A stretch of DNA of 64,000 nt from Clostridiales bacterium (GTDB taxonomy: Bacteria; Bacillota; Clostridia; Christensenellales; Aristaeellaceae), in the NCBI GenBank assembly GCA_015056325.1, contig SVGL01000003.1:82927-146926 (forward strand), written 5' to 3'. Of this stretch, positions 19-58,616 are shown one piece after another (position 1 is the stretch's first letter; the number at the start of each line of letters is the position of its first letter). Made by a program: the position numbers and the translations under genes. The notes under the pieces are model-generated. The model saw only the letters and a list, made by a program, of their open reading frames with translations, ran no database searches and had not been told where the DNA came from.

Positions 19-3000
19 ATGTTAGAGCTCAAAGGCATCAAGAAGGATTACCCGGCGGGCGACGGCATCGTCCATGCGCTCAAGGGCATTGACCTCCAGT
101 TCCGCAAGAGCGAGTTTGTGTCCATCCTCGGCCCCTCCGGCTGCGGCAAGACCACCATGCTCAACATCATCGGCGGCCTGGATCAGTATACCGAGGGTGA
201 CCTGGTGATCAACGGCACCTCCACCAAGCATTACAAGGATCGTGACTGGGACGCTTACCGCAACCATTCCATCGGCTTCGTGTTCCAGAGCTACAACCTG
301 ATTCCCCACCAGTCCGTGCTACAGAACGTTGAAATCGCCCTGACTCTTTCCGGCGTCAGCAAGGCAGAGCGCCGCAAGCGCGCCATCAAGGTGCTGCAGG
401 ATGTGGGCCTGGGAAATCAGCTGCGCAAGAAGCCTGCCCAGATGTCCGGCGGCCAGATGCAGCGCGTGGCCATCGCCCGTGCGCTGGTGAACAACCCCGA
501 CATCATCCTGGCGGACGAACCCACCGGCGCCCTGGACACCGAGACCAGCGTGCAGGTCATGGACATCCTCAAGGAGATCGCCAAGGATCGCCTGGTCATC
601 ATGGTCACCCACAACCCGGATATTGCGGAGAAGTACTCCACCCGCATCATCCGCATGCTGGACGGCGAGATCACCAGCGACTCCAAGCCTCTGACCGCCG
701 ATGAGCTGGAGGGGCTGGAAAAGCAGGCCCGCGACGCCCGCGTGGCCCGCAAAAGCGGCAAGGTGAAGAAGGAGCGCAAGCCCTCCATGTCCTGGGCGAC
801 GTCCTTTGGCTTGTCGCTCAAGAACCTGATCAGCAAGAAGTCCCGGACGCTGCTGACCTCCTTTGCCGGCTCCATCGGCATCATCGGCATCGCGCTGATC
901 TTCGCCGTGTCCAACGGCATGACCACCTACATCAACACCGTGCAGGAGGATACCCTGTCCTCCTACCCGCTGACGCTGCAGGCAAGCGACATGAACATGG
1001 GCTCTCTTCTGGCGACCTTCATTGGCAACGCCCTGTCCGGCGAGCCCCATGAGAACGACGCGGTCTACGAAAAGACCATGATCTATGATCTGGTCAATGC
1101 CCTGGGCGCGATGGAGGAGACCACCAACGACCTTAAATCCTTCAAGGTGCATCTGGATCAGATGGTGGCCGATCCGGAGAGTGAAATGCACGATGCCATC
1201 AACGGCGTGCAGTACACCTACCAGCTGCCTCTGACCGTCTACACCCAGAACGTGGACGGCGACATCATCCAGGCGGACTCCCAGGTGCTGATGCAGGAGC
1301 TGATGCTGGAATTCATGGGCATGGACCTCTCCGCCATGATGGACATCTCTGCCACCTACGGCATGGATCCTTCCAGCATGTCCATGATGCCCGGCAGCAT
1401 GAGCTCGTCCGTTGTGCTGTGGCAGGAGATGCTCACCGGCAAGAACGGCGAGATCATCAACCCCCTGCTGCTCAAGCAGTACGATCTGATCTACGGCTCC
1501 TGGCCCAACGACTACAACGAAGTGGTCGTGGTGGTGGACGAGAAGAACGAGATCGCCGACATGACCCTGTACGCCATGGGCCTCAAGCCCAAGAGCGAGA
1601 TCGAGGCGCTGGCCAATGCCGCCTTTGAGCAGAGCGGCGTGGAGGTCTCCGATGAGCGCTGGACGTACCAGGATATCTGCGGCCTGACCTTCCGCGTGGT
1701 GCTGCCTTCCAGCTGCTACGCGCAGGACGAGGTGACCGGCGCCTGGACCGATCTTCGGGAGACCCAGGCCGGATTGCGCTACCTGTACGACAACGGCCTT
1801 GACCTTAAGGTGGTGGGCATCATCCGCCCCAACGAGGAGGCCGTCTCCGGCATGCTCGGCGGCACCATCTGCTACACCGCTGGCCTGACCGAGCATCTCA
1901 TCGACGAAGCCGCTGAGGCCCCGGCTGTGCAGGCCCAGCAGGCCGATCCTGCTACGGACATCTTCACCGGTCTGCCCTTCCGGGAGACTACCGGCGCGAT
2001 GACCGAAGAGGAAAAGGCTGCCGAGTTTGCTGCCTACATCGCTACCCTCCCCGATGAGGAGAAGGCCGCCGCCTATGTGGAGATCATGTCCATCCCCACC
2101 CAGGAGCAGATCGACCAGATTGTCCAGCAGCAGCTGGGCATGATGACCCGCGCGGACATTGAAGCCGCGATGCTCCAGGCGGTGGAAGGCCAGATCAACG
2201 TCAGCGCCGAGGACATGCTGAAGTATGTCTCTGCCATGAGCGATGAAGACCTCTTCGCCCTGGTGGCCCAGATGATGGGCGAGCAGGTGGCGGTGCAGTA
2301 CGCCGAGCAGGTCAAGGCGCAGATGTCCGCGATGGACACTGCCACCCTGGTCATGGGCATGAACGTGTCCATGCCTGCCACCACGCCAGAGCAGGTGTCC
2401 GCGAAGGCTGCCATGTACGCCGCCTCCGCCGCAAATATCCCCCAGGAGCAGCTCGACATGCTCACCCGGCAGGCCCTTGCCGCCATGACCCGTGAGCAGC
2501 TGGAGGGCATGATCCTCCCCGCGATGGCAGCCCAGATGGGCATCCCGGCGGAAATGGCTGCGCCCATGCTGGCCGGCATGACCGACGAGCAGCTGCGGGA
2601 GCAGATCGCTCCTGCGGTTCAGGAGCAGATCAAGGCCGAGGCTGCCGCCAAGGTTGCTGCCATGTCCGAAGAGGAGATGTGCGCCGCCCTGGAGGCTATG
2701 CAGCCCCCCTTCACCACCGCTCAGATGGCCATGTACCACGATGCGGTGCTGCACTTCTCCGAGTCCACCTACGAGGACAACCTGATCGCCCTGGGCTGCG
2801 TCAGCCTCGATAGCCCGGCGACCATCAATATCTACGCCTCCTCCTTTGAGGACAAGGATCTGATTGAGGCGGAGATCAACGCCTACAATGCCTCCGTGGA
2901 TGAGCTACATCAGATCCGCTACACCGACTATGTGGGCCTGATGATGTCCTCTGTGACCTCCATCATCAACGCCATCACCTATGTGCTGATCGCATTCGTG

Positions 3001-5897: not shown

Positions 5898-5981
5898 AGC
5901 ACGGGATGAAAACCAGCCCCAAAAGAAAAAGGGCCTCCTTGCGGAAGCCCAATTACTTCTCCAATACCGGACAACGCTGTT

Positions 5982-6113
5982 GCCCGCGCGAGGGTCTTCG
6001 ACCCGCTTAATGCGCGGAATGACAACTTTGCTACCCGACCCAAGCTGCACGCGCATGTACTCAAACCGAAGGAGCGCAACTCAATCGCGAGTTGGGTGCA
6101 GCGTCACGCTGCC
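5982..6113 (-). repeat. Family-1 structured repeat, copy D (GCAGCG-TGA-CGCTGC proximal hairpin; nested GGGTC hairpin in the distal loop)
   Basis: Hairpin 6098-6112 lies 1 nt after the gdhA stop (6114-6116). The CGCGATTGAGTTGCGCTCCTTCGG core and the distal CCGCGC...GCGCGG stem align by eye with copies A, B and E. Confidence 0.7.
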
Positions 6114-7714: not shown

Positions 7715-7791
7715 GCACCCGTAGCTCAGCAGGATAGAGCGACCGCCTCCTAAGCGGTAGGCCGTGGGTTCGAATCCCGCCGGGTGTGCCA
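7715..7791 (+). tRNA. tRNA-Arg (anticodon CCT), CCA encoded
   Basis: The cloverleaf was folded by hand. Acceptor GCACCCG/CGGGTGT has one G-U pair. The D arm is GCTC/GAGC and the anticodon stem is ACCGC/GCGGT with loop CTCCTAA. The T arm is GTGGG-TTCGAAT-CCCGC, followed by discriminator G and CCA. Confidence 0.9.
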
Positions 7792-7823: not shown

Positions 7824-8152
7824 ATGCCGTCGCAGCGGTCAAGCAGCTATCAGGCGTCACCGCAATGGCAGCGCTTTTTGCTGATAAGGCTCGCGATATT
7901 TCCAGGTCTTTTAGGGAAGCCAGAAGCTTCAGGCGCGGGTTCGTATGCCGCCCGGTGCGTTGCGTGAACGTGAAAATAAAGAGAACCGAGCAAGGAAATG
8001 GCGATCCTGTGTAGAATTAGTACTTCATTGCTGGTTTGCACTGACAAGTGACAAATGTTTGACGCAAAGCACGATCAAGTAGAAGGAAAGTGCTTGCTGT
8101 GGAATGCCGCGATACGCAATTTGATAAGCAGGACGAAAGGGAGCGGATACAG

Positions 8153-11100
8153 ATGAAGAAGCTGCTGGTGGTTATCCTCGCGCTGATGATGGGATGGAGC
8201 ATGGCTTGTGCAGAGGAGCAGAATCAGGAATTGAGTGCACTGATGCAGCAGGCAGAGATGGGCGATCCCATCTATCAGTACAACCTGGGCGTGGAGTACT
8301 ATGTCGGCGGGCTGGTTGGCCAGGATTATACCCAGGCGGCAGCTTGGTTCCGTGCGTCGGCAGAGCAGGGCCACACGGAGGCGCAGTACTGGCTGGGCGA
8401 GTGCTATGAACATGGTCTTGGGCTGGCGCAGGATTACGCTCAGGCGGCCCAGTGGTATCAGCAGGCGGCAGAGCAGGGCCACACGGAGGCGCAGTTTAAA
8501 CTTGCCCAGCTTTTCTATCTCGGCAACGGCGTGCCGCAGGACGATGTGCAGGCGGCATATTGGTATGCGGCTGCGGCGGAACAGGGCGATGCTACAGCGC
8601 AGCATAACCTGGGCGTGTTCTATTTGAAGGGCATCGGTTTGAATCAGGATCCAACGCAGGCGGTGCAATGGTTCACTGCTGCGGCGGAACAGGGGTATGT
8701 CGATGCACAGATAGCGCTGGCGATGTGCTACTATCAGGGGGATGGCGCAGCGCAGGATTTTGCGCAGGCTGCTTATTGGTACCAGCGGGCTGCCGAGCAG
8801 GGCGACATGATTGCACAGTATAATACTGCAATATGCTATGCTAACGGGCGCGGTGTTGCGCAGGATGACGCTCAGGCGGCCTATTGGTATCAGCAGGCGG
8901 CGGAGCAGGGCTATGCGGAGGCACAATTCGACCTCGCGCTGTGCTGCTACAGGGGCGAAGGCGTCCCGCAGGACGATGTACAGGCCGTGTATTGGTATCG
9001 TCAGGCAGCGCAGCAGGGGCATATGAAGGCGCAGTTTGCATTGGGTATGTGCTGTATGCAGGGGCGTGGGACGGAGGAAAATGATGAGGAGGCAGTCTTC
9101 TGGTTTGCGGCTTCTGCGGAGCAGGGATATGCAGATGCACAGTATTATCTGGCGCTCTGTTATGCATATGGCAATGGCGTGTCCCAAAGCGACGAAATGG
9201 CAATATATTGGTGGACGAAGGCCGCCGAACAGGGCCATATGCAGTCCCAGGCCAATCTGGGCGCCTGGTACTCCACAGGTAAGCTTCCTGTGGAAGGGTA
9301 TAAAGGCGCAGGCGCGGCGGTGAATTATCCCGAAGCGGTCAAATGGTTCACGCTTGCGGCGGAGCAGGGGCATTTGCAGGCACAGGCGCTGCTGGCGTTC
9401 TGTTATTATGATGGAAAAGGCGTCGAAACGGATTATACAGAGGCGGTCAAATGGTTCAGACGCGGTGCGGAGCAGGGGTATATCGAGGCGCTGTATATGC
9501 TGGGGCAGTGTTATCACGAAGGAAAAGGCGTGCCCAAGGACAATGAGCAGGCTGCCTACTGGCTGCTGCGTGCAGCAGAACAGGGCGAGGCCTATGAAGC
9601 GCTGCCGGATCTGGAACGGACGGACGAGGAGGACGCCGGAGTCACAATTGTCTCCCTGTCCAAAGTGCCGACCACGCCTGCTGCCCAGAAGGAAATGGGT
9701 GACCGGTATTTCTTTGGCAAGGGTGCGGAGCAGAATTATGAAAAGGCGGTGGAAATGTATCGCATGGCAGCGGAAGCGGGCCATGTGAGGGCTGCCCATA
9801 TGCTGGGGCTTTGTTACTACTCTGGCTGGGGCGTGGAAAACGATGATGAGCTGGCGGTCAAGTGCTTCACCTATGCTGCTGAGCAGGGAGATGTAAACGC
9901 TTGGTATATGCTGGGGAAACTATACAGAACAGGTTCCGGCGTGGTGCAGGACTATGCCAAGGCCTTGAAGTGGCTGACTGCGGCAGCAGAAGAAGGGCAT
10001 CCCGATGCGCTGTACGAGCTGGGACAAATGTACAATGTTGGCAATGGCGTGGAACAGGATTACGAAAAGGCGGCAGCCTATTTCCAGGAAGCAGCGTTCA
10101 GCGCGGATCTGGAGGGAAAGTATTCCTTGGCGTTGTTCTACTATTATGGCGCCGGCATCGAAAGGGACCTCACAAAGGCAGTACAATGGATGCATTCGGT
10201 TGCCAATCAGGGCGTTGCGAAGGCGCAGTACTGCATGGGTGTATTCTATGCGTATGGTGAAGGCGTGGAGCAGGATTACGTGCAGGCCTTCGAATGGTAC
10301 AAAAAGGCTGCCGAGCAGGGAAATCCCGAGGCGATGAACAACCTCGGCGCATGCTATAGCGATGGTAAGGGCACCGAAACCGACGAAGAACAGGGATTTT
10401 TCTGGCATTTGAAGGCCGCTGAGGCAGGGCTGGATATTGCGCAGTGGAATGTCGCCCTGTGCTACGAAAATGGCGATGGCGTGGAAAGAAATCCGGAGCA
10501 AGCGCTCTACTGGTATACCCAGGCGGCGGAACAGGATTATGTGGAGGCACAGTATAAGCTGGGTGAGAGCTATCAGGAAGGCTTCTATTCGGTGTATGCA
10601 TCCGTGGGGGATATGCAGGAAAAAACGCTCATCCGCAGCGAGGGTATCGCCGAAGTGGATGACGAGAAGTCTGCCTACTGGTACGAACGGGCTGCCGAAC
10701 AGGGCCATATGGAGGCCCAGTACGAGACCGGCGTCTGCTATGACGAGGGCCGGGGCGTCGCACGGAATGCTGAACGGGCGATGTATTGGTATCAGCAGGC
10801 AGCCCAGCAGGTCCATGCGGAAGCGCAGTATCGTCTTGGCGTGATTTATTACTTTGGCGACGTCGTTGCCCAGGACACGGAACAGGCAGCTTACTGGTTT
10901 GCCCAGGCTGCCGGACAAGGCCATGAGGAATCGCAGTTCAACCTTGGCGTTCTTTATGCGAATGGTTATGGCGTGCCGCAGGATGACGTCCAGGCAGCAT
11001 ACTGGTACACCCAGGCTGCAGAGCAGGGCTATGTGCAGGCGCAATACTACCTTGGTACACGTTATGAAAACGGCAAAGGCGTTCCCCAGGATATGGAGAA

Positions 11101-11980
11101 GGCTGCGTATTGGTACACTCAGGCGGCGGAGCAGGGTCATATGGATGCACAACATGAGCTGTCGATGTATTGCTTAAAGGCATCTGACGCGGAAGGCGCT
11201 GCAAAATGGGCCGCTGCCGCAGCAGAGCAGGGGCATGCGACTGCGCAGTACAACCTCGCGCTGTTCTATGAGAATGGATATGGCGTGCCGCAGGATATAG
11301 AACAGGCAGTCTACTGGTATACCCGGTCTGCAGAGCAGGGCGATGCGGATGCGCAGTATGAGGTTGGAATGTATGCGTATATGGCAGAAAATGTGAAAAC
11401 AGCAGCAAAGTGGTTTGCTGCTGCTGCGGAGCAGGGTCATATGGAATCGCAGTTCAACCTTGGCGTGCTTTACGCAAACGGATATGGCGTGCCGCAGGAT
11501 GACGTCCGGGCAGCATACTGGTACACCCAGGCGGCAGAGCAGGGCCATGTGCAGGCGCAATACTACCTTGGTACGCGCTATGAAAACGGCATAGGCGTTC
11601 CCCAGGATGTGGAGAAGGCTGTGTATTGGTACAACCAGGCGGCGGAGCAAGGGCTGGCAGAAGCCCAGTACTATGCCGGAATGTATGCGTACATGGCAGA
11701 CGATATAGACACAGCGGTACGGTGGATGATGGCGGCTGCGGAACAGGGCGACATGGATGCGCAGTATATCATTGCTCGGTTGTACGAATATGGCGAGGGT
11801 GTGCCTGAGGACGATGCCCAGGCGGCTGTCTGGTATGCTCGGGCGGCGAAACAAGGGCATATGGAGGCTCAGTATGCCCTTGGCAGTTGCTACGACGAAG
11901 GACGGGGTGTTCCCCGGGATGCGGAGAAGGCGGCTTATTGGTATGCACAGGCTGCCGCCCAGGGGTACACCGGAGAATAA
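8153..11980 (+). CDS. Secreted Sel1-like repeat (SLR/TPR-family) protein, ~1275 aa
   Basis: Track ORF 8090..11980 trimmed to MKKLLVVILALMMGWSMACAEE, a signal peptide preceded by GAAAGGGAG. About 30 or more repeats of roughly 36 aa follow the pattern A..W...AAEQG...AQ..LG.CY..G.GV.QD. Confidence 0.9.
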   Translation: MKKLLVVILALMMGWSMACAEEQNQELSALMQQAEMGDPIYQYNLGVEYYVGGLVGQDYTQAAAWFRASAEQGHTEAQYWLGECYEHGLGLAQDYAQAAQWYQQAAEQGHTEAQFKLAQLFYLGNGVPQDDVQAAYWYAAAAEQGDATAQHNLGVFYLKGIGLNQDPTQAVQWFTAAAEQGYVDAQIALAMCYYQGDGAAQDFAQAAYWYQRAAEQGDMIAQYNTAICYANGRGVAQDDAQAAYWYQQAAEQGYAEAQFDLALCCYRGEGVPQDDVQAVYWYRQAAQQGHMKAQFALGMCCMQGRGTEENDEEAVFWFAASAEQGYADAQYYLALCYAYGNGVSQSDEMAIYWWTKAAEQGHMQSQANLGAWYSTGKLPVEGYKGAGAAVNYPEAVKWFTLAAEQGHLQAQALLAFCYYDGKGVETDYTEAVKWFRRGAEQGYIEALYMLGQCYHEGKGVPKDNEQAAYWLLRAAEQGEAYEALPDLERTDEEDAGVTIVSLSKVPTTPAAQKEMGDRYFFGKGAEQNYEKAVEMYRMAAEAGHVRAAHMLGLCYYSGWGVENDDELAVKCFTYAAEQGDVNAWYMLGKLYRTGSGVVQDYAKALKWLTAAAEEGHPDALYELGQMYNVGNGVEQDYEKAAAYFQEAAFSADLEGKYSLALFYYYGAGIERDLTKAVQWMHSVANQGVAKAQYCMGVFYAYGEGVEQDYVQAFEWYKKAAEQGNPEAMNNLGACYSDGKGTETDEEQGFFWHLKAAEAGLDIAQWNVALCYENGDGVERNPEQALYWYTQAAEQDYVEAQYKLGESYQEGFYSVYASVGDMQEKTLIRSEGIAEVDDEKSAYWYERAAEQGHMEAQYETGVCYDEGRGVARNAERAMYWYQQAAQQVHAEAQYRLGVIYYFGDVVAQDTEQAAYWFAQAAGQGHEESQFNLGVLYANGYGVPQDDVQAAYWYTQAAEQGYVQAQYYLGTRYENGKGVPQDMEKAAYWYTQAAEQGHMDAQHELSMYCLKASDAEGAAKWAAAAAEQGHATAQYNLALFYENGYGVPQDIEQAVYWYTRSAEQGDADAQYEVGMYAYMAENVKTAAKWFAAAAEQGHMESQFNLGVLYANGYGVPQDDVRAAYWYTQAAEQGHVQAQYYLGTRYENGIGVPQDVEKAVYWYNQAAEQGLAEAQYYAGMYAYMADDIDTAVRWMMAAAEQGDMDAQYIIARLYEYGEGVPEDDAQAAVWYARAAKQGHMEAQYALGSCYDEGRGVPRDAEKAAYWYAQAAAQGYTGE
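10922..11651 (+). repeat. Recent 516-bp (172-aa) tandem super-repeat inside the Sel1 gene
   Basis: 10922-11135 and 11438-11651 align colinearly. By hand count there are about 15 mismatches in the first ~197 nt, far closer than the other SLR units are to each other. Confidence 0.8.
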
Positions 11981-17643: not shown

Positions 17644-19497
17644 ATGAAGAGGATGCTGGGATTATTGTTGGCATTGGTGATGCTTTGGGGTGCAGCCGCT
17701 GCACAGGAGCAGGAGGATAAAGTGCGCCGCTGGATGGAATTGGCGCAGCAGGGAGACGCGGTGGCCCAGTACAATCTGGCGGTCTGCTATTACTATGGGC
17801 GGGGTGTGGCGGTTGATCATCAGCAGGCGGTGTATTGGTACGAAAAGGCTGCCGCGCAGGGCGATCCGGATGCGATGAATAACCTCGGCATCCACTATTA
17901 CAACGGCGAAGGCGTGGCGGTGGATTACGGCAAGGCATTCTACTGGATCAGCCAGGCAGTAGAACATGGCGCCGCTGACGGGCAGTATAACCTGGCCCGG
18001 TGCTATGATGACGGCATTGGCGTTGAGGAGAATGCGGAGCTTGCGTTCTATTGGTACGAGAAGAGTGCTGCGCAGGGGAGCCTGAAGGCAGTATACATGG
18101 TGGGCTGCTGCTATTATGACGGTGAGGGCGTGGCGCAGGACTATGCGCAGGCGTTCCGCTGGTTCCAGACAGGAGCGGAGCAGGGGCACGGGCCAGCGCA
18201 GTATATGCTGGGCTTGTGTTACCTTGACGGACACGGCACAGCGAAAAACTACGAACAGGCAGCGCACTGGCTCATGCTTGCGTCGGATCAGGACGGGAAT
18301 CCTGCGGGCGAGGCGGACGAAGTATTTGCCGCAGCTTCTGCATCACTGGCAGAGGAGGACAACACGGTGGTCATCGTTTCGCTGAACAAAACGCCGACCA
18401 CCCCTGCTGCCCAGTATGAGATGGGCAGGCATTACTTCCTGGGGGAGGGCGTGCCAAAGGATTACCCAAAGGCGATCGGGCTTCTTCAGATGGCCGCGGA
18501 AGCAGGGCATCTGGAGGCTGCATACATGCTGGGCATATGCTATTCTTATCAGGCCGAGGGCCTTGAGCAGGATTTTCCGCAGGCGGTCCGCTGGTTTACT
18601 TTGGCTGCGGAGAAGGGGCATGCGCAGGCGCAGTACCTCTTGGGCTTTTTGTATCTGCGCGGTCTGGGGATAGAAAAGGATTATGTCCAGGCGCTGGCAT
18701 GGATCAGCGCCTCCGCAGAGCAGGGGCTTCCCCAGGCACTGTACCAACTGGGCACAATATACGCGGAAGGCCTCGGTGTGGAAAAGAACGAGGATCGGGC
18801 GGCGCAATACTACAGGGAGGCTGCATCCTGTGCCGATGAGGAGGGCAAGTACAGCCTGGGTATTGCGTATTACCGGGGCGATGGCGTGGAAAGGGACGTC
18901 CGAAAGGCTGCGCAGTGGATGCTGTCCGCTGCCAATCAGGGGCATGCAGAGGCACAGTACTTGCTGGGTATGATGTACTTCAGCGGCGAGGGCGTGGAGC
19001 AGGATGTTCAGCAGGCTGTCTACTGGCTTGGACAATCTGCCGAACAGAACGAGCCCAATGCGCAGTACAGATTGGGCCAGTGCTACTGGGATGGCCTGGG
19101 CGTCATCCAGAATGTTGAGCGGGCTTCCTACTGGTACACACTGGCTTCGCTGCAGGGTCATGCAGGGGCGCAATATGCCCTTGCGAGGTGCTTTGAGCTC
19201 GGATTTGGCATTGAGCAGGATCTTGAAATGGCTGCCCACTGGTACATACAAGCTGCAGAAGGCGGTCATAGCGAGGCGCAGTACACGCTGGCGATGTGCT
19301 ACGAGTTTGGCATCGGTGTGGAAGAGAATGCCCCAATGGCGCTGTACTGGTATACTGTATGTGCAGAGCAGGGAGACGTGAACGCTCAGCTCTGGGTGGC
19401 CACCTGCTATGAAAAGGGGATTGGCACGGAGCCTGATGCAGAGAAGGCGGCCTACTGGCGCGCCCGGGCGGCTGAAAACGACGATAGTGAAGAATAA
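17644..19497 (+). CDS. Secreted Sel1-like repeat protein, 617 aa (paralog of 8153..11980)
   Basis: Signal peptide MKRMLGLLLALVMLWGAAAAQEQ and SLR repeats throughout. It shares the non-SLR central segment IVSLNKTPTTPAAQYEMG with the larger paralog. Confidence 0.9.
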   Translation: MKRMLGLLLALVMLWGAAAAQEQEDKVRRWMELAQQGDAVAQYNLAVCYYYGRGVAVDHQQAVYWYEKAAAQGDPDAMNNLGIHYYNGEGVAVDYGKAFYWISQAVEHGAADGQYNLARCYDDGIGVEENAELAFYWYEKSAAQGSLKAVYMVGCCYYDGEGVAQDYAQAFRWFQTGAEQGHGPAQYMLGLCYLDGHGTAKNYEQAAHWLMLASDQDGNPAGEADEVFAAASASLAEEDNTVVIVSLNKTPTTPAAQYEMGRHYFLGEGVPKDYPKAIGLLQMAAEAGHLEAAYMLGICYSYQAEGLEQDFPQAVRWFTLAAEKGHAQAQYLLGFLYLRGLGIEKDYVQALAWISASAEQGLPQALYQLGTIYAEGLGVEKNEDRAAQYYREAASCADEEGKYSLGIAYYRGDGVERDVRKAAQWMLSAANQGHAEAQYLLGMMYFSGEGVEQDVQQAVYWLGQSAEQNEPNAQYRLGQCYWDGLGVIQNVERASYWYTLASLQGHAGAQYALARCFELGFGIEQDLEMAAHWYIQAAEGGHSEAQYTLAMCYEFGIGVEENAPMALYWYTVCAEQGDVNAQLWVATCYEKGIGTEPDAEKAAYWRARAAENDDSEE

Positions 19498-41269: not shown

Positions 41270-42646
41270 TTAGAACAAGACGCTGATGGCCTGCATCACC
41301 GTGTCCACGCCCATGAATTTAATGCCCTCGGGTGTAGCAAGCCGCTTCAGGTTCTCCCTGGGCAGTACGATGGTGGTGAAGCCCAGACGCTGGCATTCGG
41401 CCACGCGGCGGTCACACTGGGGGATGGCTCGCACCTCGCCCGCCAGGCCGACTTCGCCCATGACGGCCACATCCGCGCCAATGGGCATGTCCTTCAGGGA
41501 GGACACCACCGCCATGCACAGCGCCAGATCCGCCGCCGGCTCAGACAATTCCAGGCCGCCGGCCACGTTGATGTACACGTCCTGGTTGTAGGTTTTCTGG
41601 CCCGCGCGCTTCTCCAGCACCGCCAGCAGCAGCGCCACGCGGGAGGCGTCCGCGCCGCCGACCGTCCTTCGGGGTGCGCCGAAGTAGCTGGTGCTGGCCA
41701 GGGCCTGCACGTCGCACAGGAGCGGCCGCGAGCCCTCCAGCCCGCAGAACACCACCGATCCGCTGGCACCCTTGGCCCGGCGGGAAAGCAGCTGCTCGGA
41801 GGGGTTTGTGACCACCTGCATGCCCTTGTCGGTCATCTGGAACACGCCCAGCTCATTCACCGAGCCAAAACGGTTCTTCACCGCGCGCAGCAGGCGGTAT
41901 TCCTGCATCTTGTCTCCCTCAAAGTAGAGCACCACGTCCACCATGTGCTCAAGCATGCGGGGGCCGGCGATGGCGCCGTCCTTGGTGACGTGGCCGACGA
42001 GGAAGATTGCCGTGCCACTCTCCTTGCACAGGCGCATGATGAGGCTGGTGCACTCCCGCACCTGGCTGACGGAGCCGGGAGCAGAGGCCATCTCCGGGCG
42101 GTACATGGTCTGCACGGAGTCGATGACGGCCACGTCCGGCTGGAGCTGGTTCAGCTTTTCTTCCACCGCGTCCAGGGCGTTTTCCGCCAGCACATAGAGC
42201 TGTTCCTCGCGGATGCCCAGGCGGTTGGCGCGGAGCTTCAACTGCTTGGCGCTTTCCTCGCCGGAGACATACAGCACCCGCTTGCCGGCGCGGGCGAGGT
42301 TTGCGCACACCTGCAGCAGCAGCGTCGATTTGCCCACGCCCGGATCGCCGCCGATGAGCATCAGCGCACCCTCGACAATACCGCCGCCCAGCACCCGATC
42401 CAGCTCGGATACGCCGGTGGATGTGCGGACGGTCACGTCCTCGGGGATATCCTTGAGGAGCATCGCTGCCGCACCGGTGCCGGGGCGCTGCTTTGGTGCA
42501 ACTTTCTTTCCGGTGCTTTTAGAAAATGGGTCGAAGACCCCCTCTTCCATGGTGTTCCATGCGCCGCAGCCGGGGCATTTGCCCGTCCACTTGGCGGTCT
42601 CAAACCCGCAGGCGGTGCAGGCAAAGAGCGTTTTTTCCTTGGCCAT
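41270..42646 (-). CDS. radA: DNA repair protein RadA
   Basis: N-terminal zinc finger CTACGFETAKWTGKCPGCGAW, Walker A GGDPGVGKST, KNRFG motif and a Lon-like C-terminus. Confidence 0.95.
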   Translation of the reverse strand: MAKEKTLFACTACGFETAKWTGKCPGCGAWNTMEEGVFDPFSKSTGKKVAPKQRPGTGAAAMLLKDIPEDVTVRTSTGVSELDRVLGGGIVEGALMLIGGDPGVGKSTLLLQVCANLARAGKRVLYVSGEESAKQLKLRANRLGIREEQLYVLAENALDAVEEKLNQLQPDVAVIDSVQTMYRPEMASAPGSVSQVRECTSLIMRLCKESGTAIFLVGHVTKDGAIAGPRMLEHMVDVVLYFEGDKMQEYRLLRAVKNRFGSVNELGVFQMTDKGMQVVTNPSEQLLSRRAKGASGSVVFCGLEGSRPLLCDVQALASTSYFGAPRRTVGGADASRVALLLAVLEKRAGQKTYNQDVYINVAGGLELSEPAADLALCMAVVSSLKDMPIGADVAVMGEVGLAGEVRAIPQCDRRVAECQRLGFTTIVLPRENLKRLATPEGIKFMGVDTVMQAISVLF

Positions 42647-45620: not shown

Positions 45621-45667
45621 GGTCGAAGAAGGAAACGGGTCGAAGAAGGAGGTGGGTCGAAGACCCC
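45621..45667 (-). repeat. Family-1 hairpin (GGGGTC-TTC-GACCC) abutting the GNAT stop, plus two 17-nt-period partial copies
   Basis: GGTCGAAGA occurs at 45621, 45638 and 45655. The last copy forms the hairpin at 45654-45667, directly next to the stop at 45668-45670. Confidence 0.7.
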
Positions 45668-48330: not shown

Positions 48331-50922
48331 ATGCAGAAGGACACCTTCCTCATCGTTGACGGCAACAGCCTGATGCACCGCGCCTACCACGCGCTTCCGC
48401 TGATGGACGCCGATGGAATCTACACCAACGCCATTTACGGCTTTCTAAACATGCTCCTCAAGGTCATCAAGGAGGAGAATGTGCGCTATATCGCCGTGTG
48501 CTTTGACGAGCACGGCCCCACCTTCCGCCACACCGCATACCCGGATTACAAGGCCGGACGCTCCGCCACCCCCGATGAACTCCGCCAGCAGTTCCGCACC
48601 ATCCGCGAGCTGCTGACCGACATCGGCGTGAAGTGGTACACTCTTATGGGCTGGGAGGCGGATGACCTCCTGGGCACCCTGTCCCTCAAGGCGGAGGAGG
48701 ATGCGAGGCCCCTGCTGCTCACCGGTGACCGGGACGCGCTTCAACTTGTGGACGGCAAGACTGAGCTGATGTTCACCCGCAAGGGCATCTCGGAGACCAT
48801 CCTGTTTACCCCGGCCAGGGTGCACGAGGAGTACGGCTTCAGCCCTGAGCAGGTCACCGACTGGAAGGGCCTGGCCGGCGACAGCAGCGACAACATCTCC
48901 GGCATCCCCGGCGTGGGCGACAAGACCGCCGTGAAGCTGCTGCAGAAGTACGGCACCCTCGAAAACATCCTCGCATCCACCGCCCAGGAGAAGGGCAAGC
49001 TCCGCGAGAAGCTGGAGACCTGGCCCGATCAGGCCCGCATGTGCAAGGAGCTGGCCACCATCCGCCGGGATGCGCCGGTGGACTTCAAACTCGCAGACTG
49101 CAGGCTGCCCGACCTGAAGCAGGCCATCCCCGCGCTGAAGAAGCTGCGGCTCAACGCGCTGATCAAGCGCATCTCCGGGGAGGGGAGCGCGACGCAGGCC
49201 ACGGCTTCCGCGCCCGAAACCGCCGAGGTCGCTCCGCTGACCCTGCTGCCCTTCGCGGACTTTGTCCAGGTGGATACGGCAGACGGCCTCACAAACTGGC
49301 TTTCTGCCCTTGCAGACAATGCATACCCCATCGCCCTCCACATGGGCGACATCAGCATGTCCATCGCCGCGCAGGACGGCTCCTGCTGCATGGTCAACCT
49401 CGGCGGCGATCTGCTCATGCCCGGCCTTGATCCGGTGGAGGTGCTGACCGCGCTGGCTCCCGTGATTGGCCAGCATCCGTGCATCGTCCACGACGGCAAG
49501 CGGCTGTGGCACCAGCTTGACAGACTTCGTCTGCCTCTACCAGATGCATTTGATTGGGACACCATGCTGGGCGCGTACCTCATCAACCCCCAGGAGAAGA
49601 GCTACACCTGGGCAGCCCTGCGCGGCGAGATGCCCGACGACGCAAGGGGCGCGATGTCCCTGGCTGCGTGGCAGAAGCGCAAGATCGAGGCCGACCAGAT
49701 GTCCCACCTCATGCAGGAGGTCGAGATGCCCCTGAGCCGCGTGCTGTTCAACATGGAGCAGGTCGGCTTCACCGTGGACACCGCCTTCCTCAAGACCCTG
49801 GGCGAGCGCTACACGGCCCAGATTGAAGAGGCCAGGTCCGCCGTCTTCAAGGCGTGTGGGGTGAAACCCTTCAACCTCAACAGCACCCAGCAGCTGGGCG
49901 AGGTGCTCTTTGACCAGCTGGGGCTCCCCCACGGCAAGAAGACCTCCCGCGGCTATTCCACCTCTGCGGAAGTGCTGGAAAACCTGCGCGACATCGCCCC
50001 GGAGATCATCGATCCCCTCCTGCGCTACCGCCAGCTGACCAAGCTGAACAGCACCTACATCGAGGGCCTGCTGCGCCTGACCGAACCCAACGGCCGGGTG
50101 CACTCTACCTTTGACCAGGTCGCCACGGCGACGGGCCGCATCTCCTCCTCCGAGCCCAACCTGCAGAATATCCCCGTCCGCACTTCCGAGGGCCGCGAGA
50201 TCCGCCAGGCCTTCCTGCCCCGCGAGGGCTGGGTGCTCCTGGACGCGGACTACTCCCAGATTGAGCTGCGGCTGATGGCCCATTTCTCCGGCGACGAAAA
50301 CATGCTGGATGCCTTCCGCACCGGCCAGGACGTGCACGCCCGCACCGCCAGCGAGATCTTTGACGTGCCGCTGGACCAGGTGGATTCGACCCTGCGCAGC
50401 AACGCCAAGGCGGTCAACTTCGGCATCATCTACGGCATCAGCGGCTTTGGCCTGAGCCGCAACACCGGTGTCAGCCAGCAGGAAGCGCGGTCCTTCATCA
50501 GCCGGTACTTCGCCAAGTACCCGGGCGTGAAGCGCTTCATGGACACCGCCGTGGCCGACGGCCAGCAGAACGGCTACGCCCTGACCCTCATGGGCAGACG
50601 GCGCTATCTCCCTGAGCTCACCGCGTCCAACGCCATGGTGCGCGAATTCGGCAAGCGCGCCGCGATGAACACCCCCGTCCAGGGCACTGCGGCGGACATC
50701 ATCAAGCTGGCCATGGTCCGCGTGGACGAAGCCCTTCGCCGGGAGAAGCTGCAAAGCCGCCTGATCCTCCAGGTGCACGACGAGCTGCTGCTGGAGTGCC
50801 CGCCGGAGGAGGTCGAAACCGCATCCCGCATCCTGCAGGAGGCCATGGAGGGCGTCATCAGCCTATCCGTGCCGCTGTCGGCCGAAGTCCATCAGGGCGT
50901 CAACTGGGCGGAAGCACACTGA
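48331..50922 (+). CDS. polA: DNA polymerase I
   Basis: Track ORF trimmed to MQKDTFLIVDGNSLMHRAYHA (AGGAGG RBS). It has a 5'-nuclease domain and polymerase motifs A (LLDADYSQIELR), B (RSNAKAVNFGIIYG) and C (QVHDELLLE). Confidence 0.95.
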   Translation: MQKDTFLIVDGNSLMHRAYHALPLMDADGIYTNAIYGFLNMLLKVIKEENVRYIAVCFDEHGPTFRHTAYPDYKAGRSATPDELRQQFRTIRELLTDIGVKWYTLMGWEADDLLGTLSLKAEEDARPLLLTGDRDALQLVDGKTELMFTRKGISETILFTPARVHEEYGFSPEQVTDWKGLAGDSSDNISGIPGVGDKTAVKLLQKYGTLENILASTAQEKGKLREKLETWPDQARMCKELATIRRDAPVDFKLADCRLPDLKQAIPALKKLRLNALIKRISGEGSATQATASAPETAEVAPLTLLPFADFVQVDTADGLTNWLSALADNAYPIALHMGDISMSIAAQDGSCCMVNLGGDLLMPGLDPVEVLTALAPVIGQHPCIVHDGKRLWHQLDRLRLPLPDAFDWDTMLGAYLINPQEKSYTWAALRGEMPDDARGAMSLAAWQKRKIEADQMSHLMQEVEMPLSRVLFNMEQVGFTVDTAFLKTLGERYTAQIEEARSAVFKACGVKPFNLNSTQQLGEVLFDQLGLPHGKKTSRGYSTSAEVLENLRDIAPEIIDPLLRYRQLTKLNSTYIEGLLRLTEPNGRVHSTFDQVATATGRISSSEPNLQNIPVRTSEGREIRQAFLPREGWVLLDADYSQIELRLMAHFSGDENMLDAFRTGQDVHARTASEIFDVPLDQVDSTLRSNAKAVNFGIIYGISGFGLSRNTGVSQQEARSFISRYFAKYPGVKRFMDTAVADGQQNGYALTLMGRRRYLPELTASNAMVREFGKRAAMNTPVQGTAADIIKLAMVRVDEALRREKLQSRLILQVHDELLLECPPEEVETASRILQEAMEGVISLSVPLSAEVHQGVNWAEAH

Positions 50923-51036
50923 GGGGTCTTCGACCCCGTTTTCACGCGATTGGGTTGAGCGCCTTCGGTTCGGCTGTTCCCGCGTGTTTATCGGGCCTTG
51001 ACTGAAAGCTGTCGTCCGCGCGCTCATCGCGCGGGC
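50923..51036 (+). repeat. Family-1 structured repeat, copy A
   Basis: GGGGTC-TTC-GACCCC begins at the nucleotide after the polA TGA. It is followed by GTTTTC, the CGCGATTGGGTTGAGCGCCTTCGG core and the distal hairpin CCGCGCG-ctcat-CGCGCGG (51016-51034). Confidence 0.8.
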
Positions 51037-51143: not shown

Positions 51144-51404
51144 ATGTCTGAAATTCTTGAGTTCAAGTTTGACACCCAGCTGCTGATCGAGGGCCACGAC
51201 CTGGATGAGGACGAAATCTTCGACTACATCACCGAGCACTTCGAGGGCGACTGCCTCCTTGCCGTGGGCGACGATGAGCTGATCAAGATCCACTTCCACA
51301 CCAACAAGCCCTGGGAGGTGCTTGAGTACTGCGCGACCCTGGGCGAGATCCACGACATCGTGGTGGAGAACATGCAGCTGCAGAGTGAAGGCATGCACGG
51401 TTGA
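51144..51404 (+). CDS. Small acidic protein resembling the central domain of FakA/YloV (DAK2-fusion) proteins
   Basis: 86 aa, AAAGGAG RBS. The motif GDCLLAVGDDELIKIHFHTNKPWEVLEY ... IVVENMQLQ resembles the GDSL.VV.D...KVHVHTN.P..VL ... I.NM..Q segment of YloV-type proteins (from memory). Confidence 0.55.
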   Translation: MSEILEFKFDTQLLIEGHDLDEDEIFDYITEHFEGDCLLAVGDDELIKIHFHTNKPWEVLEYCATLGEIHDIVVENMQLQSEGMHG

Positions 51405-51428: not shown

Positions 51429-51464
51429 AAGAGCTGCGACATCAGTGTGTCGCAGCTCTTTTTG
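51429..51464 (+). terminator. Rho-independent terminator of the 86-aa gene
   Basis: AAGAGCTGCGAC-atcagtgt-GTCGCAGCTCTT followed by TTT. Confidence 0.75.
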
Positions 51465-51486
51465 TGTGGTACAGACCTTCTGTGCA

Positions 51487-51602
51487 GCCCGCGCGATAGC
51501 GAGCGCGGACGCTCAGCTATGGTCAAAGCCGCAAGCTCCACGCGGAAGCAGCCAGACCGAAGGCGCTCAGCTCAATCGCGCGAAAATGGGGTCGAAGACC
51601 CC
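51487..51602 (-). repeat. Family-1 structured repeat, copy B (inverted relative to A)
   Basis: The reverse complement aligns with copy A over its full length. Hairpin 51588-51602 touches the TAA (51603-51605) of the ABC exporter gene. Confidence 0.8.
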
Positions 51603-55403: not shown

Positions 55404-55446
55404 GGGGTCTTCGACCCTTTTATCGCGATTGAGTTGGTCTGTTCCC
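55404..55446 (+). repeat. Family-1 repeat, truncated copy C
   Basis: GGGGTCTTCGACCC, TTTTAT, CGCGATTGAGTTG, then GTCTGTTCCC. It matches the first part of copy A with an internal deletion. Confidence 0.6.
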
Positions 55447-55448
55447 TT

Positions 55449-55595
55449 GCAGATCAGATCTGTTCAGGTCTTTATCAGGTCTTTATCAGATCTGTTCAGG
55501 TCTTGATCAGATCGGGGGAAGGATGTGCTTCAATCCAACCTTCGATTTGCTTTGGAGGGAGATCTGTACCTGGAGGATCTGCAGATCTGATCTGC
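55449..55595. repeat. GATC-rich block: 21-bp direct repeats plus a 14-bp perfect inverted repeat
   Basis: ATCAGATCTGTTCAGGTCTT(T/G) occurs at 55453-55473 and 55485-55505, with the partial ATCAGGTCTTT at 55474-55484. GCAGATCAGATCTG (55449-55462) is the reverse complement of CAGATCTGATCTGC (55582-55595). There are 10 GATC sites in 172 bp. Confidence 0.8.
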
Positions 55596-55776: not shown

Positions 55777-56490
55777 ATGACGGTATTCGAAGCGGTAAAG
55801 CAGATCAGCTGCAACGATGCGGCGGAGCGTCTGGGCCTTCGCGGCAAGCGCACCAGCGCGACCCAGGGCCGTTGGCGCTGCCCCTTCCACGATGACCACC
55901 ACCCCAGCATGGCCTGCTATGACAGCACCAACCGCTTCTACTGCTTCACCTGCCACGCCTCCGGCGACGCTGCCAACCTGTTCGCGAGGGTTCGCGGTCT
56001 GTCCCCGGTGGAGGCTGCCAAGGCGGCCCTGACGGAGTTCGGGCTGGAGATCCCCGGGGGGTGCGATCGTCCCCGGAGAGATGAAGTGATCATCCGCCAG
56101 GACGTGGTGAAGCGCTGTGCGGGTCTGATCCGGGAGGAGTACCGCGAGGGGATGGCGCTGCTGCTCTCGGCCCAGGCGGAGGGGATGACCGCGGCCATGG
56201 AAAAGGCGCCCGACACGGAGGGCTGGCTCTGGGGCCACGCGCTGCAAAGGGCCTGCAGGGTACAGGAGGAGTCCGCCCGGTGGCAGGGTATGGCCGATGA
56301 GGATGTGCAGCAGGAGATCACCCAGGCGCTCAAAGCCGGGAATCCGCCCCACTGGGGCGAGGGTCTGCCCGCGCCGGGCCGGGTGCTGTTCAGAGCCATC
56401 ATGGACGACCTGGAACGCCGCAGCGGCACCTTCCCTAAGCTGAACCTGAGTGAGCAGAAAGCCGTGCTGAATATGCTGTGCGCGGCATAG
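55777..56490 (+). CDS. CHC2 (DnaG/primase-type) zinc-finger protein without a TOPRIM domain
   Basis: AAAGGAAAGGAG RBS. Zinc-finger motif CPFHDDHHPSMACYDSTNRFYCFTCHASGD. The C-terminal 150 aa are not recognised. Confidence 0.8.
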   Translation: MTVFEAVKQISCNDAAERLGLRGKRTSATQGRWRCPFHDDHHPSMACYDSTNRFYCFTCHASGDAANLFARVRGLSPVEAAKAALTEFGLEIPGGCDRPRRDEVIIRQDVVKRCAGLIREEYREGMALLLSAQAEGMTAAMEKAPDTEGWLWGHALQRACRVQEESARWQGMADEDVQQEITQALKAGNPPHWGEGLPAPGRVLFRAIMDDLERRSGTFPKLNLSEQKAVLNMLCAA

Positions 56491-56497
56491 AAAAAGA

Positions 56498-56510
56498 GGG
56501 TCGAAGACCC
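56498..56510. repeat. Family-1 hairpin-only copy (GGGTC-GAA-GACCC)
   Basis: 7 nt after the TAG of the CHC2 gene. Confidence 0.55.
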
Positions 56511-56533
56511 CCGCAACGAGGAGTGCTAAAAGC

Positions 56534-57291: not shown

Positions 57292-57405
57292 GCCCGCGCG
57301 ATGAGCGCGCGGACAGTGGACACGGCGAAAGACCCAAGCAGCACGCAGCAGGTCTATGATATGGGGGATCAGCTGGATTGCGAGCCGGGTGCAGCGTCAC
57401 GCTGC
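57292..57405 (-). repeat. Family-1 structured repeat, copy E (overlaps the 3' end of rlmD)
   Basis: Distal GCCCGCGCGATGAGCGCGCGGAC, a central ...CCCAAGCAGCACGC... block and the proximal hairpin GCAGCG-TCA-CGCTGC at 57391-57405. Colinear with copy D. Confidence 0.7.
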
Positions 57406-58616
57406 AACAGCATCACGCACTCGCAGTGCTCCGTGTGGGGGAACATGTCCACAGGAACAGCCTTGACGGCGGTGTAGTGGCCCTTCACCAGGAACCTGGC
57501 GTCCCTTGCGAGGGTTTCGGGGTTGCAGGAGACGTAGACGATGGTCTTGGGGCCGCTGGTCAGGACAGAGCGCAGGAATCGCTCGTCCGAGCCGGAACGG
57601 GGCGGGTCCATGATGAGCACGTCGGGGGTGCGGCCCTCCTTTGCGAGCCTGACCATGAAGCGGCCAGCGTCCTCGCAGATGAAGTCCGCATTGGTGACGC
57701 GGTTGAGCTTGGCATTGACCTTGGCGTCCCGCACGGCGTCAGCGTTGAGCTCCACGCCGATGAGGCGCTGCACCCTGTCCGACGCGCAAAGGCCGATGGT
57801 GCCCGTGCCGCAGTAGGCGTCCAGGAGGGTCTCCTTGCCGGTGAGGTTTGCAAGGTCGATGGCGGTCTGGTACAGCACTTCAGTCTGCCTTGCGTTGACC
57901 TGATAGAAGCTCTGCGGACTGATGCGGAAGCGCTTGCCCAGCAGCTCGTCCTCCATATAGCCGGGGCCGAAGAGGGCATAATCGCGGCTGCCGAGGACCA
58001 TGGACGTCTCCTTCTGGTTGACGTTGAGGACGACGGTGGTGATCTCGGGATGCTTCTCCGTCAGCTCCGCGACGAAGGCCTTGCCCCCGGGGAACTCGCT
58101 GGCCGTGGCCACGAGGATGACCATGATCTGCCCCGTATGATGCCCGGTGCGCACCATGACATGCCGCAGGAAGCCACGATGGGTGTTCTCGTTGTAGATG
58201 CGCAGCTTGTACCGGGGGATCATGCCCACGATGGTCTGGATGATGCGGTCAGCGCGCGGGTCCTCAATGAGGCAGCCCTGCACGGGCACGACGCGGTGCG
58301 TCCCCCGCTGATACACGCCGGACACGGGCTGCTTGGTCTTGAAGTCGGTGCCGATGACGGCATGCACCTTGCTGCGGTAGTGCCAGGGGTCGGACATGCC
58401 GAGGATGGGCTCCACCTTGCAGATGCCGGAAAGCAGCTTCTCCACCGCGGATTGCTTGCGCTTCAGCTGCTCCCCGTAGGGGATGTGCACCTGGGTGCAG
58501 CCGCCGCAGCGGGAGGAGAACTCGCAGGGGGTCTTCGACCCATTTTCATTGGACACGGATCCCTTGGTGGTAGGCTTCTGAGGAACAGGCCTGGGCCTGG
58601 GTTTGCGGTCAGTCAT
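57369..58616 (-). CDS. rlmD: 23S rRNA (uracil-C5)-methyltransferase, RumA/RlmD (TrmA family)
   Basis: Track ORF trimmed to MTDRKPRP (GAAGGAG RBS). Fe-S Cys cluster CEFSSRCGGC, SAM motif LLDAYCGTGTIGL, DPPRSG, and catalytic Cys in YVSCNP. Confidence 0.88.
   Translation of the reverse strand: MTDRKPRPRPVPQKPTTKGSVSNENGSKTPCEFSSRCGGCTQVHIPYGEQLKRKQSAVEKLLSGICKVEPILGMSDPWHYRSKVHAVIGTDFKTKQPVSGVYQRGTHRVVPVQGCLIEDPRADRIIQTIVGMIPRYKLRIYNENTHRGFLRHVMVRTGHHTGQIMVILVATASEFPGGKAFVAELTEKHPEITTVVLNVNQKETSMVLGSRDYALFGPGYMEDELLGKRFRISPQSFYQVNARQTEVLYQTAIDLANLTGKETLLDAYCGTGTIGLCASDRVQRLIGVELNADAVRDAKVNAKLNRVTNADFICEDAGRFMVRLAKEGRTPDVLIMDPPRSGSDERFLRSVLTSGPKTIVYVSCNPETLARDARFLVKGHYTAVKAVPVDMFPHTEHCECVMLLQRDAAPGSQSS

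Follow-up and report, generated by a model that had tools for sequence, protein, structure and literature searches.

A modular hairpin-and-core repeat family that frequently abuts stop codons in uncultured gut Clostridia

What kind of element recurs as structured copies of about 115 bp within a single stretch of clostridial DNA, and why do these copies abut stop codons? The window analyzed here, a stretch of 64,000 nucleotides, had been described beforehand as holding four such copies (A, B, D and E) that could be aligned from end to end. To avoid circularity, we built a profile HMM exclusively from non-window copies (n = 12, from other genomes). This profile recovered all four copies in the 64-kb window, with E-values of 2.2e-22 for A, 1.5e-20 for B, 2e-15 for D and 5.4e-11 for E, and its sole extra match there was one truncated copy at 55405-55438. 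The existence of four copies is thus supported both by an independent profile and by an end-to-end alignment with a mean column identity of 67%, and the positions first given for them hold to within a few nucleotides. The four copies genuinely belong to a modular repeat family that has not been described before and that is carried by uncultured, Christensenellales-like gut Clostridia. Pfam identified the flanking genes as polA, two ABC exporters, gdhA, an rlmD-like methyltransferase gene and genes for a GNAT protein, a CHC2 protein and a GDSL lipase, in agreement with the gene names proposed earlier. The copies and their parts are located as follows.

50923-51036, plus strand: copy A, a full element, 0 nt behind the polA stop (TGA 50920-50922)
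50923-50937, plus strand: proximal hairpin of copy A, GGGGTC-ttc-GACCCC
50938-50944, plus strand: linker of copy A, GTTTTCA
50945-50968, plus strand: core of copy A
50980-50986, plus strand: CCGCGTG of copy A
51016-51034, plus strand: distal hairpin of copy A, CCGCGCG-ctcat-CGCGCGG
51483-51602, minus strand: copy B, a full element, 0 nt behind the ABC-exporter stop (TAA 51603-51605)
51588-51602, 51557-51580 and 51539-51545, minus strand: hairpin, core and CCGCGTG of copy B, respectively
51483-51508, minus strand: distal hairpin and right end (GGGCTGCA) of copy B
5978-6112, minus strand: copy D, 1 nt behind the gdhA stop (TAA 6114-6116)
6098-6112, minus strand: hairpin of copy D, GCAGCG-tga-CGCTGC
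6066-6089, 6048-6054 and 5978-6017, minus strand: core, GCGCGTG and distal hairpin of copy D, respectively
5991-6005, plus strand: hairpin module AGGGTCTTCGACCCG, reversed and nested in the loop of the distal hairpin of copy D
57292-57405, minus strand: copy E, of a subfamily with a diverged core
57391-57405, minus strand: hairpin of copy E, overlapping the last rlmD-like codons
57359-57382, minus strand: diverged core of copy E, containing the ORF-ending TGA 57369-57371
57292-57312, minus strand: distal hairpin of copy E, identical to that of copy A
55404-55436, plus strand: truncated copy, in which hairpin GGGGTCTTCGACCCT and linker TTTAT are followed by the initial 13 nt of the core

The unit comprises three modules: a hairpin with its linker (H), a 24-nt core (C) and a hairpin-rich tail. 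The proximal hairpin is perfect and GC-rich, 13-17 nt long, with a stem of 4-11 bp and a loop of mostly 3 nt, and it brings its own linker. T-rich linkers of the TTTTCG type accompany GGGGYttcRCCCC hairpins, and other hairpins carry linkers of the ACCCGGCT or GGGGCGGCT type. The core, CGCGATTGRGTTGNGCGCCTTCGG, is almost invariant over its 24 nt and is followed by about 12 variable nucleotides and then by CGCGTG. In the lineage of the window, the tail terminates in GCGCGGGCTGCA, CCGCGCG-ctcat-CGCGCGG-GCTGCA. Compensatory changes, which the preliminary description had proposed to look for, were found in both terminal hairpins. Among 62 distinct proximal hairpin sequences, 83% of stem positions were Watson-Crick paired, as compared to 46% when the arms were re-partnered at random, and GC, CG, AT and TA pairs were all seen at each position of the stem. 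More than 20 proximal stem sequences occur in the clade and at least two forms in the window. Covariation extends to the distal hairpin, whose arms read CCGCGCG/CGCGCGG, CCGCGCC/GGCGCGG or CCGGCCG/CGGCCGG around a constant CTCAT loop; its Aristaeellaceae forms are CGGCGCGC, CGGCTCGC and CGGCGCAC with their complements. RNAalifold and mutual information detected no covarying pairs in the core and the stretch leading to CGCGTG, where the only pairs are invariant CGCG ones, and no covariation in the tail. The core is a primary-sequence signal, unchanged even between genomes that share only 74% identity in their polA DNA. Predicted folds consist of three independent local hairpins, and the two ends of the element do not pair. 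The stability of single-sequence folds was not significantly higher than that of shuffled sequences (z from -0.9 to -2.3). G.T and A.C mismatches, compared with respect to RNA versus DNA folding, were roughly equal in number among the few informative mismatches.

The proximal hairpin also exists in the window as a hairpin-only module of about 21 nt, made up of the hairpin and a short T-run. With two or fewer mismatches, the hairpin GGGGTCTTCGACCC occurs 8 times in the window, against an expected 0.13. The modules that lie apart from the copies above are the following.

45653-45667, minus strand: hairpin-only module, 0 nt behind the GNAT stop (TAA 45668-45670)
56497-56511, minus strand: hairpin-only module plus CTTTTT, its T-run side facing the CHC2 stop (TAG 56488-56490)
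42527-42541, minus strand: hairpin module plus ATTTTC within the radA linker, reading GVFDPFS in frame
58528-58542, plus strand: hairpin module plus ATTTTC, antisense, in the N-terminal region of the rlmD-like gene

The module previously reported directly at the GNAT stop was found there at 0 nt, and two half-copies, CTTCTTCGACC(C), come after it at about 45621-45648. A module near the CHC2 gene is present as reported, but its orientation is minus, opposite to the gene, and 6 nt rather than 7 separate stop and hairpin; it is convergent with the CHC2 gene and sits downstream of the GDSL gene's own terminator. As a separate observation, hairpin-only copies beyond those listed earlier lie inside radA, antisense in the rlmD-like gene and reversed within the loop of copy D. 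The radA module lies in a 48-nt patch unlike that of orthologs that are otherwise 95-97% identical. A clean 21-nt insertion was rejected at this site, where the orthologs show an equal-length replacement of 48 nt. The radA module therefore replaces sequence of a hypervariable linker, the patch differing wholly from such near-identical orthologs.

An over-representation of 8 copies against 0.13, with the motif lying in or next to the DNA-repair genes radA and polA, raises the question of whether the hairpins are inverted pairs of a genome-wide DNA signal of the DUS/USS or Chi kind. Neisseria DUS occur in and next to DNA-repair genes. The hairpin sequence, however, is not constant within a genome (the window alone has at least two forms, and the clade has more than 20), and the element's constant part, the core, is found only behind a hairpin and in intergenic positions. 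Of all readings weighed here, we consider this one the most improbable.

The placement of the four copies agreed with the earlier account, in which they lie 0-1 nt behind polA, the ABC exporter and gdhA and overlap the end of rlmD. By coordinates, the offset is 0 nt for A (after TGA) and B (after TAA) and 1 nt for D (after TAA). In copy E, the methyltransferase Pfam model stops at ...LLQR, and the last 9 residues and the TGA come from the element. The truncated copy has no same-strand gene ahead of it. Because the ordinary terminators of other genes in the window begin 8-17 nt past the stop, zero-distance placement is a property of the family and not of the genome.

The hairpin together with TTTTC had been proposed to form a minimal intrinsic terminator. 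A terminator scan called neither A nor B. Runs of T are rare: at least 5 T in the next 8 nt were found in 3 of 87 distinct hairpin-linker modules, and 54 of the 87 have one T or none. Terminators were located at two positions downstream of the elements.

5931-5950: canonical terminator downstream of copy D
51431-51458: real bidirectional terminator downstream of copy B

The presence of these canonical terminators places the elements inside the transcript, between stop and terminator. Copies A and E lie between co-directional genes, and the ribosome-binding site of the next gene follows within about 20 nt of the end of E. Could the elements nevertheless be plain intrinsic terminators of their upstream genes, with a conserved appendix? 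The TTTTC or TTTCG that follows hairpins of the GGGGYttcRCCCC class would fit, as would the location directly behind genes. Against it stand the scan and the scarcity of T-runs, the terminators that come after D and B, the co-directional genes around A and E, and the spacing of 8-17 nt at which ordinary terminators of the window start. We therefore regard the terminator proposal as not supported for the minimal hairpin and as very improbable for the element as a whole. A promoter reading was rejected, as none was predicted.

A search of related genomes, also suggested in the preliminary description, revealed how far the family extends. The core CGCGATTGNGNTGNGCNCCTTCGG was scanned against one genome per species and gave 62 loci, 8 of which are chance matches in unrelated phyla without a hairpin. 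About 54 core loci lie in 13-14 uncultured gut MAGs labeled Christensenellales, Aristaeellaceae or 'Clostridia', originating from human, sheep, goat and roe-deer gut. At least 7 contigs, as read from match positions, end in or beside an element, as expected of an assembly-breaking repeat. A 304-kb JGI metagenome contig matches the window, whose closest named relatives are GCA_045591175.1 and GCA_045132495.1; RadA homologs carry the same taxonomic labels. Viral contigs gave a single match, by chance and inside coding-like sequence, and a metagenome scan for the hairpin plus T-run gave 19 loci, most of them unrelated. Units may stand alone and often form tandem arrays, in which up to 8 of them point the same way at a period of 42, 61, 74, 78 or 268 nt. 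Hairpin cassettes may differ inside one array (loci L003, L013 and L022). Because tails are identical inside an array and different between arrays, the arrays must grow through local duplication.

There were 64 arrays in total, about 59 of which could be assessed for docking. In about 31 of these 59, the stop of a long, coding-like ORF on the same strand lies no more than 1 nt ahead of a hairpin module, a count that takes in chains of hairpin modules and stops forming part of the stem (TAAGGGGCtctGCCCCTTA). The remaining arrays comprise a few at 3-7 nt, a few after a normal terminator and about 10 in other contexts. After manual correction, about 44 of 54 arrays were co-oriented with the upstream gene (binomial p = 3e-6); the other 10 or so have no co-oriented gene ahead. 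The enrichment at gene 3' ends and the orientation bias anticipated earlier are thus both seen in relatives. Placement at stops is frequent, with about half of the 59 arrays docked, but it is not strict, as shown by the roughly 10 of 54 arrays located elsewhere and by the hairpin-only copies inside genes. Tail-first docking was found in one case, L026.

Several simple causes of this placement were considered and set aside. Docked stops are enriched in TAA (20 TAA, 9 TGA and 0 TAG, versus 83, 111 and 10 elsewhere; p = 0.01), and 5' junctions are variable (TAA, TGA, TCG, GTG, GCG, AAA and others). The stop codon (TRA) as a target motif was ruled out, as non-docked junctions are not TRA. Selection against intragenic insertion predicts a flat spread over the 9-16-nt spacer and not a spike at 0. 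Duplication of the 3' end of a gene across the element was seen once (L026) and is not general among 44 docked arrays and the window copies.

Ten loci encoding an identical small FakA-like protein (51144-51404 in the window) provide filled and empty sites for comparison. At the polA stop, element A is present only in the species of the window; the site is empty in L065, L068 and L072 and is followed by unrelated repeats or hairpins in L066, L067 and L071. At the ABC-exporter stop, B is found in the window and, as an orthologous copy, in L067. The two copies of B keep the hairpin, core, CGCGTG and distal hairpin, and their 12-nt variable segment is wholly different. The same stop bears a different hairpin with a related body in L068 and a hairpin chain without a core in L066; it is empty in L071 and L072, where a terminator lies 9-16 nt past the stop. 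At the stop of the small gene, the window lacks an element, TGA|TGCAAACTG, and L067 and L071 carry one, TAA|element...GCTGCATCG|TGCAAACTG, with body and right junction common to both loci and with different hairpin cassettes; three Aristaeellaceae genomes also carry an element at this stop. Three different hairpins occupy the gdhA stop (window, L022 and L027), and two occupy the stop of a gene ending in ...LTDTPW (L021 versus L092). Cassettes swapped on the same body were observed for L067 versus L071, in L022, in L013 and for L021 versus L092.

None of these filled/empty comparisons showed a change in the native C-terminus or in where the stop lies; the element is therefore placed precisely at the border of the native stop and the old downstream sequence. 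A stop supplied by the element was ruled out in this way: polA, gdhA, the ABC exporter and the small gene each have the same C-terminus and stop, whether the site is filled or empty. Neither target-site duplications nor inverted ends were detected at filled versus empty sites. Presence/absence polymorphism within a species was not seen, L064, L069 and L073 being identical to the window. The comparison of orthologous sites thus shows that units have been gained or lost and that H cassettes are exchanged on a constant body. The earlier proposal of an interchangeable proximal hairpin is upheld by these swaps, with the qualification that its two forms have grown to more than 20 stems.

Are these units maintained by their hosts? 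A host-selected, cis-acting RNA module of the 3' UTR, whose spread is secondary, is in our estimate a possible but doubtful explanation. The processing or stability of mRNA 3' ends would be set jointly by a stop-anchored hairpin, an exposed, conserved, AU-richer core (AUUGAGUUGA) and additional hairpins, or these parts would couple translation termination to downstream events. Some 80% of arrays are sense-oriented behind genes, upstream of real terminators where these were located, and exact adjacency to a stop is 'known' only to the translation machinery. The orthologous stops of gdhA, the small gene and the ABC exporter each keep perfect hairpins that differ in sequence, and the orthologous copies of B retain all their structured parts and the core around a scrambled 12-nt segment. 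The variety of hairpins at one stop, with a core that is constant at 74% polA identity, could equally mean host selection. This explanation would account better than DNA-level spread for stop adjacency, for different hairpins at the same stops and for conservation in orthologous copies. By contrast, it does not accommodate hairpin copies that are intragenic, antisense or nested in reverse, nor the roughly 10 arrays in other contexts. Close relatives have empty sites with no visible substitute, and a functional reason for as many as 8 units in tandem is hard to see. Core and tail lack covariation, an excess of G.U pairs is not seen, and Rfam holds no relative.

A related suggestion is that the arrays are small RNA genes, or give rise to 3'-UTR-derived sRNAs, with the core as seed and each unit ending at the next hairpin. 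Many 3'-UTR sRNAs start at the stop codon, as these units do. The conserved and apparently unpaired 24-nt core would suit a seed, and units of 42-78 nt are bounded by hairpins, some with short T-runs. However, most hairpins lack T-runs, promoters would have no room and were not predicted, and copy number and insertion polymorphism fit a repeat and not a regulator gene. We consider this suggestion highly unlikely.

The account that we prefer, with a probability of roughly 0.55, is a lineage-wide, non-autonomous, mosaic intergenic repeat residing in 3' UTRs, REP/BIME-like but built differently. It would spread by DNA-level copying, because the intragenic, antisense and reverse-nested hairpin copies are inexplicable by RNA function. 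Copying would proceed in two layers: H cassettes would be pasted beside stops and 5' of cores, and C bodies would always come behind an H. It would probably be performed by a putative trans-acting enzyme that reads the invariant core and a generic hairpin, for which a single-strand HUH/Y1-type enzyme is the best precedent; none was found in the window and the flanks searched. Searches with IS200 and IS608 TnpA (approximate query sequences) gave no tblastn match in the window plus about 450 kb of flanks, and clustering of the ORFs in these flanks (about 450 kb) yielded no recurrent ORF family, a weak negative result given this coverage. Gene-conversion-like replacement between copies would probably keep the hairpins perfect. 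Because they lie between a stop and a real terminator or the next gene, the elements would be transcribed as 3' UTR or intercistronic RNA. By analogy with REPs, stop-abutting hairpins probably act there as barriers to 3' exonucleases and as insulators, which would account for tolerance, or mild favor, of the sense orientation.

A bolder reading holds that placement at stops is no by-product. The hairpin cassettes would then belong to a new kind of mobile element, its insertion or replacement aimed at the 3' edge of stops, or the unit would be a host-selected 3'-UTR RNA device tied to translation termination, common to a whole order of gut Clostridia. We rate this as rather unlikely.

Short interspersed repeats have been well studied in Proteobacteria (REP/BIME, ERIC and Correia elements), pneumococci and mycobacteria. 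To our knowledge, little such work has addressed Christensenellales-like Clostridia, which are abundant and uncultured inhabitants of the human and ruminant gut. Because neither a target sequence nor simple selection readily explains base-exact docking on housekeeping stops, this docking points to a mechanism that inserts or converts copies there, or else to an RNA function linked with translation termination. In practical terms, the elements appear to break metagenome assemblies, several contigs ending there, and they alter C-termini, as in rlmD here. They may find use as strain-typing markers, and the 24-nt core offers a search handle for the mobilizing enzyme.

Which known system does the family resemble? 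The preliminary description had recognized no named family, and our searches likewise returned none. At the gathering threshold, Rfam 15 identified one tRNA only in the window; permissive thresholds, applied to the A/B region and the L013 array, yielded chance-level matches only, and six element strings had no match in a literature search covering 8 million full texts. A classical MITE was rejected, as the ends GGGGTC... and ...GCGGGCTGCA are not inverted repeats and target-site duplications are absent, and a CRISPR array was rejected, as units abut and there are no spacers.

Integron attC sites, including the Vibrio cholerae repeats (VCR), are structured repeats of about 120 bp situated at or over the stop of the preceding ORF and oriented with it, their structure being better conserved than their sequence. 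Length, start at the stop, orientation and a structure conserved despite varying sequence are shared with the present family. Membership was rejected, as the 5' and 3' ends of the elements are not complementary and R''/R' core sites are absent; moreover, the docked genes are housekeeping genes in conserved synteny (polA, gdhA, ABC and rlmD) and not cassettes, and no integrase was seen. BOX elements of Streptococcus pneumoniae, boxA-boxB(n)-boxC, are modular, with a variable number of internal modules and stem-loop potential, and lie in transcribed intergenic regions. They resemble the family in these respects and in their Gram-positive host, but boxA and boxC resemble terminal inverted repeats, and BOX shows neither stop docking nor an exchangeable hairpin nor a sequence match. 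PATEs derived from IS200/IS605 have no terminal inverted repeats or target-site duplications, carry a hairpin near each end and insert strand-specifically (PMC6006769, and in part general background). These features are common to the present family. In PATEs, however, the hairpin lies about 10-20 nt inside the element, whereas here it is 0 nt from the junction; neither the hairpin sequences nor a target tetra- or pentanucleotide is constant here, and no TnpA was found in the flanks.

MIRUs are reportedly direct tandem units of 40-100 bp, intergenic within operons, oriented with transcription and touching or overlapping the upstream stop (Supply et al.). The likeness lies in arrangement only, that is, direct tandem units along transcription that abut an upstream stop. 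Unlike the present units, MIRUs lack a leading hairpin, an invariant core and a distal hairpin, and the two are dissimilar in sequence. Small ORFs in MIRUs are thought to maintain translational coupling. In the arrays, no such coupling ORF emerged, the periods not being consistently multiples of 3 and no start being conserved.

REP/BIME elements, which RAYT (TnpA-REP) transposases mobilize in E. coli and Pseudomonas, for example, and whose Y1 (HUH) RAYT gene usually has REPs on its flanks, are likewise close in arrangement. They too are short, GC-rich extragenic hairpins found mostly at gene 3' ends inside transcripts, with several hairpin families per genome and covarying stems; BIME-2 forms mosaic, often tandem arrays with other conserved motifs; and these elements can adjoin stops and lack classical terminal inverted repeats or target-site duplications. 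The basic unit of REP/BIME (REPIN), however, consists of two REPs in inverted orientation (PMC6006769), whereas the units of the present family are all direct, in all arrays. Nor is there a conserved GTAG-type tetranucleotide at the hairpin foot: a linker of the TTTTC or ACCC type lies 3' of the hairpin, and the sequence 5' of it is unrelated. On inverted doublets and the conserved tetranucleotide, the family falls outside REP/BIME as defined. Its hairpins are shorter (13-17 nt) and far more diverse, the invariant part being the unpaired 24-nt core; its first hairpin lies 0-1 nt from the stop; and its hosts are uncultured Christensenellales-like Clostridia, with no RAYT found in the window and the flanks searched. 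Cumulatively, the arrangement of the family is closest to those of REP/BIME and MIRU, and its architecture is distinct from both: 1) an exchangeable leading hairpin; 2) an invariant unpaired core; 3) strict head-to-tail polarity; and 4) base-exact docking on native stops.

Across all loci, the stop codons behind which an element (hairpin, core and tail) directly starts comprised 20 TAA and 9 TGA with no TAG, and the other stops comprised 83 TAA, 111 TGA and 10 TAG. TAA is over-represented among docked stops and TAG is absent from them (Fisher p = 0.01; all loci). Among the near relatives of the window, the small FakA-like gene (window 51144-51404) ends in TAA when its site is filled; when the site is empty, the gene ends in TGA.

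An element in the opposite orientation was found in L026, a compared locus from outside the window. At 5150-5400 it is docked tail-first, at a distance of 0 nt, on the stop codon of a gene that is encoded on the minus strand and ends ...SHPPLSERIAAIEKA*. The last ~44 nt of this gene are present again beyond the element, differing only by synonymous changes and in the last codon. This second gene-end copy is followed by a mini-element and then by a third copy, which is partial. A sequence resembling the element core, GCGATTGAG, is present in the gene end. When 44 other arrays were tested, gene-end duplication of the L026 kind was found not to be general.

Short repeats accompany a hairpin module (proximal hairpin lacking core and tail) and the truncated copy (55404-55436, +) within the window:

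45621-45648 (-), two extra half-copies CTTCTTCGACC(C) at 16-17 nt spacing, right behind the GNAT-stop hairpin module
55440-55540 (+), short interleaved repeats (GATCAGATCTGTTCAGGTCTTTATCAGGTC...) after the truncated copy

The half-copies look as if they were slippage products. For intergenic DNA compared between these genomes, the 85% conservation of positions 55476-55708 in L026 is unusually high. Another hairpin module lies in a 48-nt patch of the radA linker (42494-42541) that is wholly unlike the equally long segment of two orthologs; outside this patch, the same two orthologs are 95-97% identical. The RadA linker is hypervariable among close homologs.

Several Aristaeellaceae/Eubacteriales loci (L018, L025, L034, L036, L043 and L059) share a second family of repeats, GGGGGACGCTGGGGCTYCTCG...CCCCAGACCCTCGCC, often directly 5' of a hairpin module. 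The DNA immediately 3' of the polA stop is a hot spot, with unrelated insertions in L066, L067, L070 and L071. The features concerned in these compared loci are as follows:

L036, around 192-270, minus strand, example of the second repeat family
L082, 9600-9700 (-), hairpin-only module plus ~55 nt, bounded by the 14-nt direct repeat GGACCCGAACGGAG
L066/L070, 2811-3000, and L071, 2886-3000, AT-rich tandem repeats after the polA stop
L066/L070, repeat unit (GAATTAGGAATGAT)n after the polA stop
L067, 2850-3000, other hairpins after the polA stop

The direct repeat in L082 may have arisen by target duplication or be a local repeat.

A tRNA gene (7715-7788, +) is the sole Rfam match in the window, and two long ORFs consist almost wholly of 108-nt tandem repeats (36 residues, Sel1-like), present in dozens of copies with 60-80% identity:

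8090-11980 (+), Sel1-like repeat ORF
17644-19497 (+), Sel1-like repeat ORF
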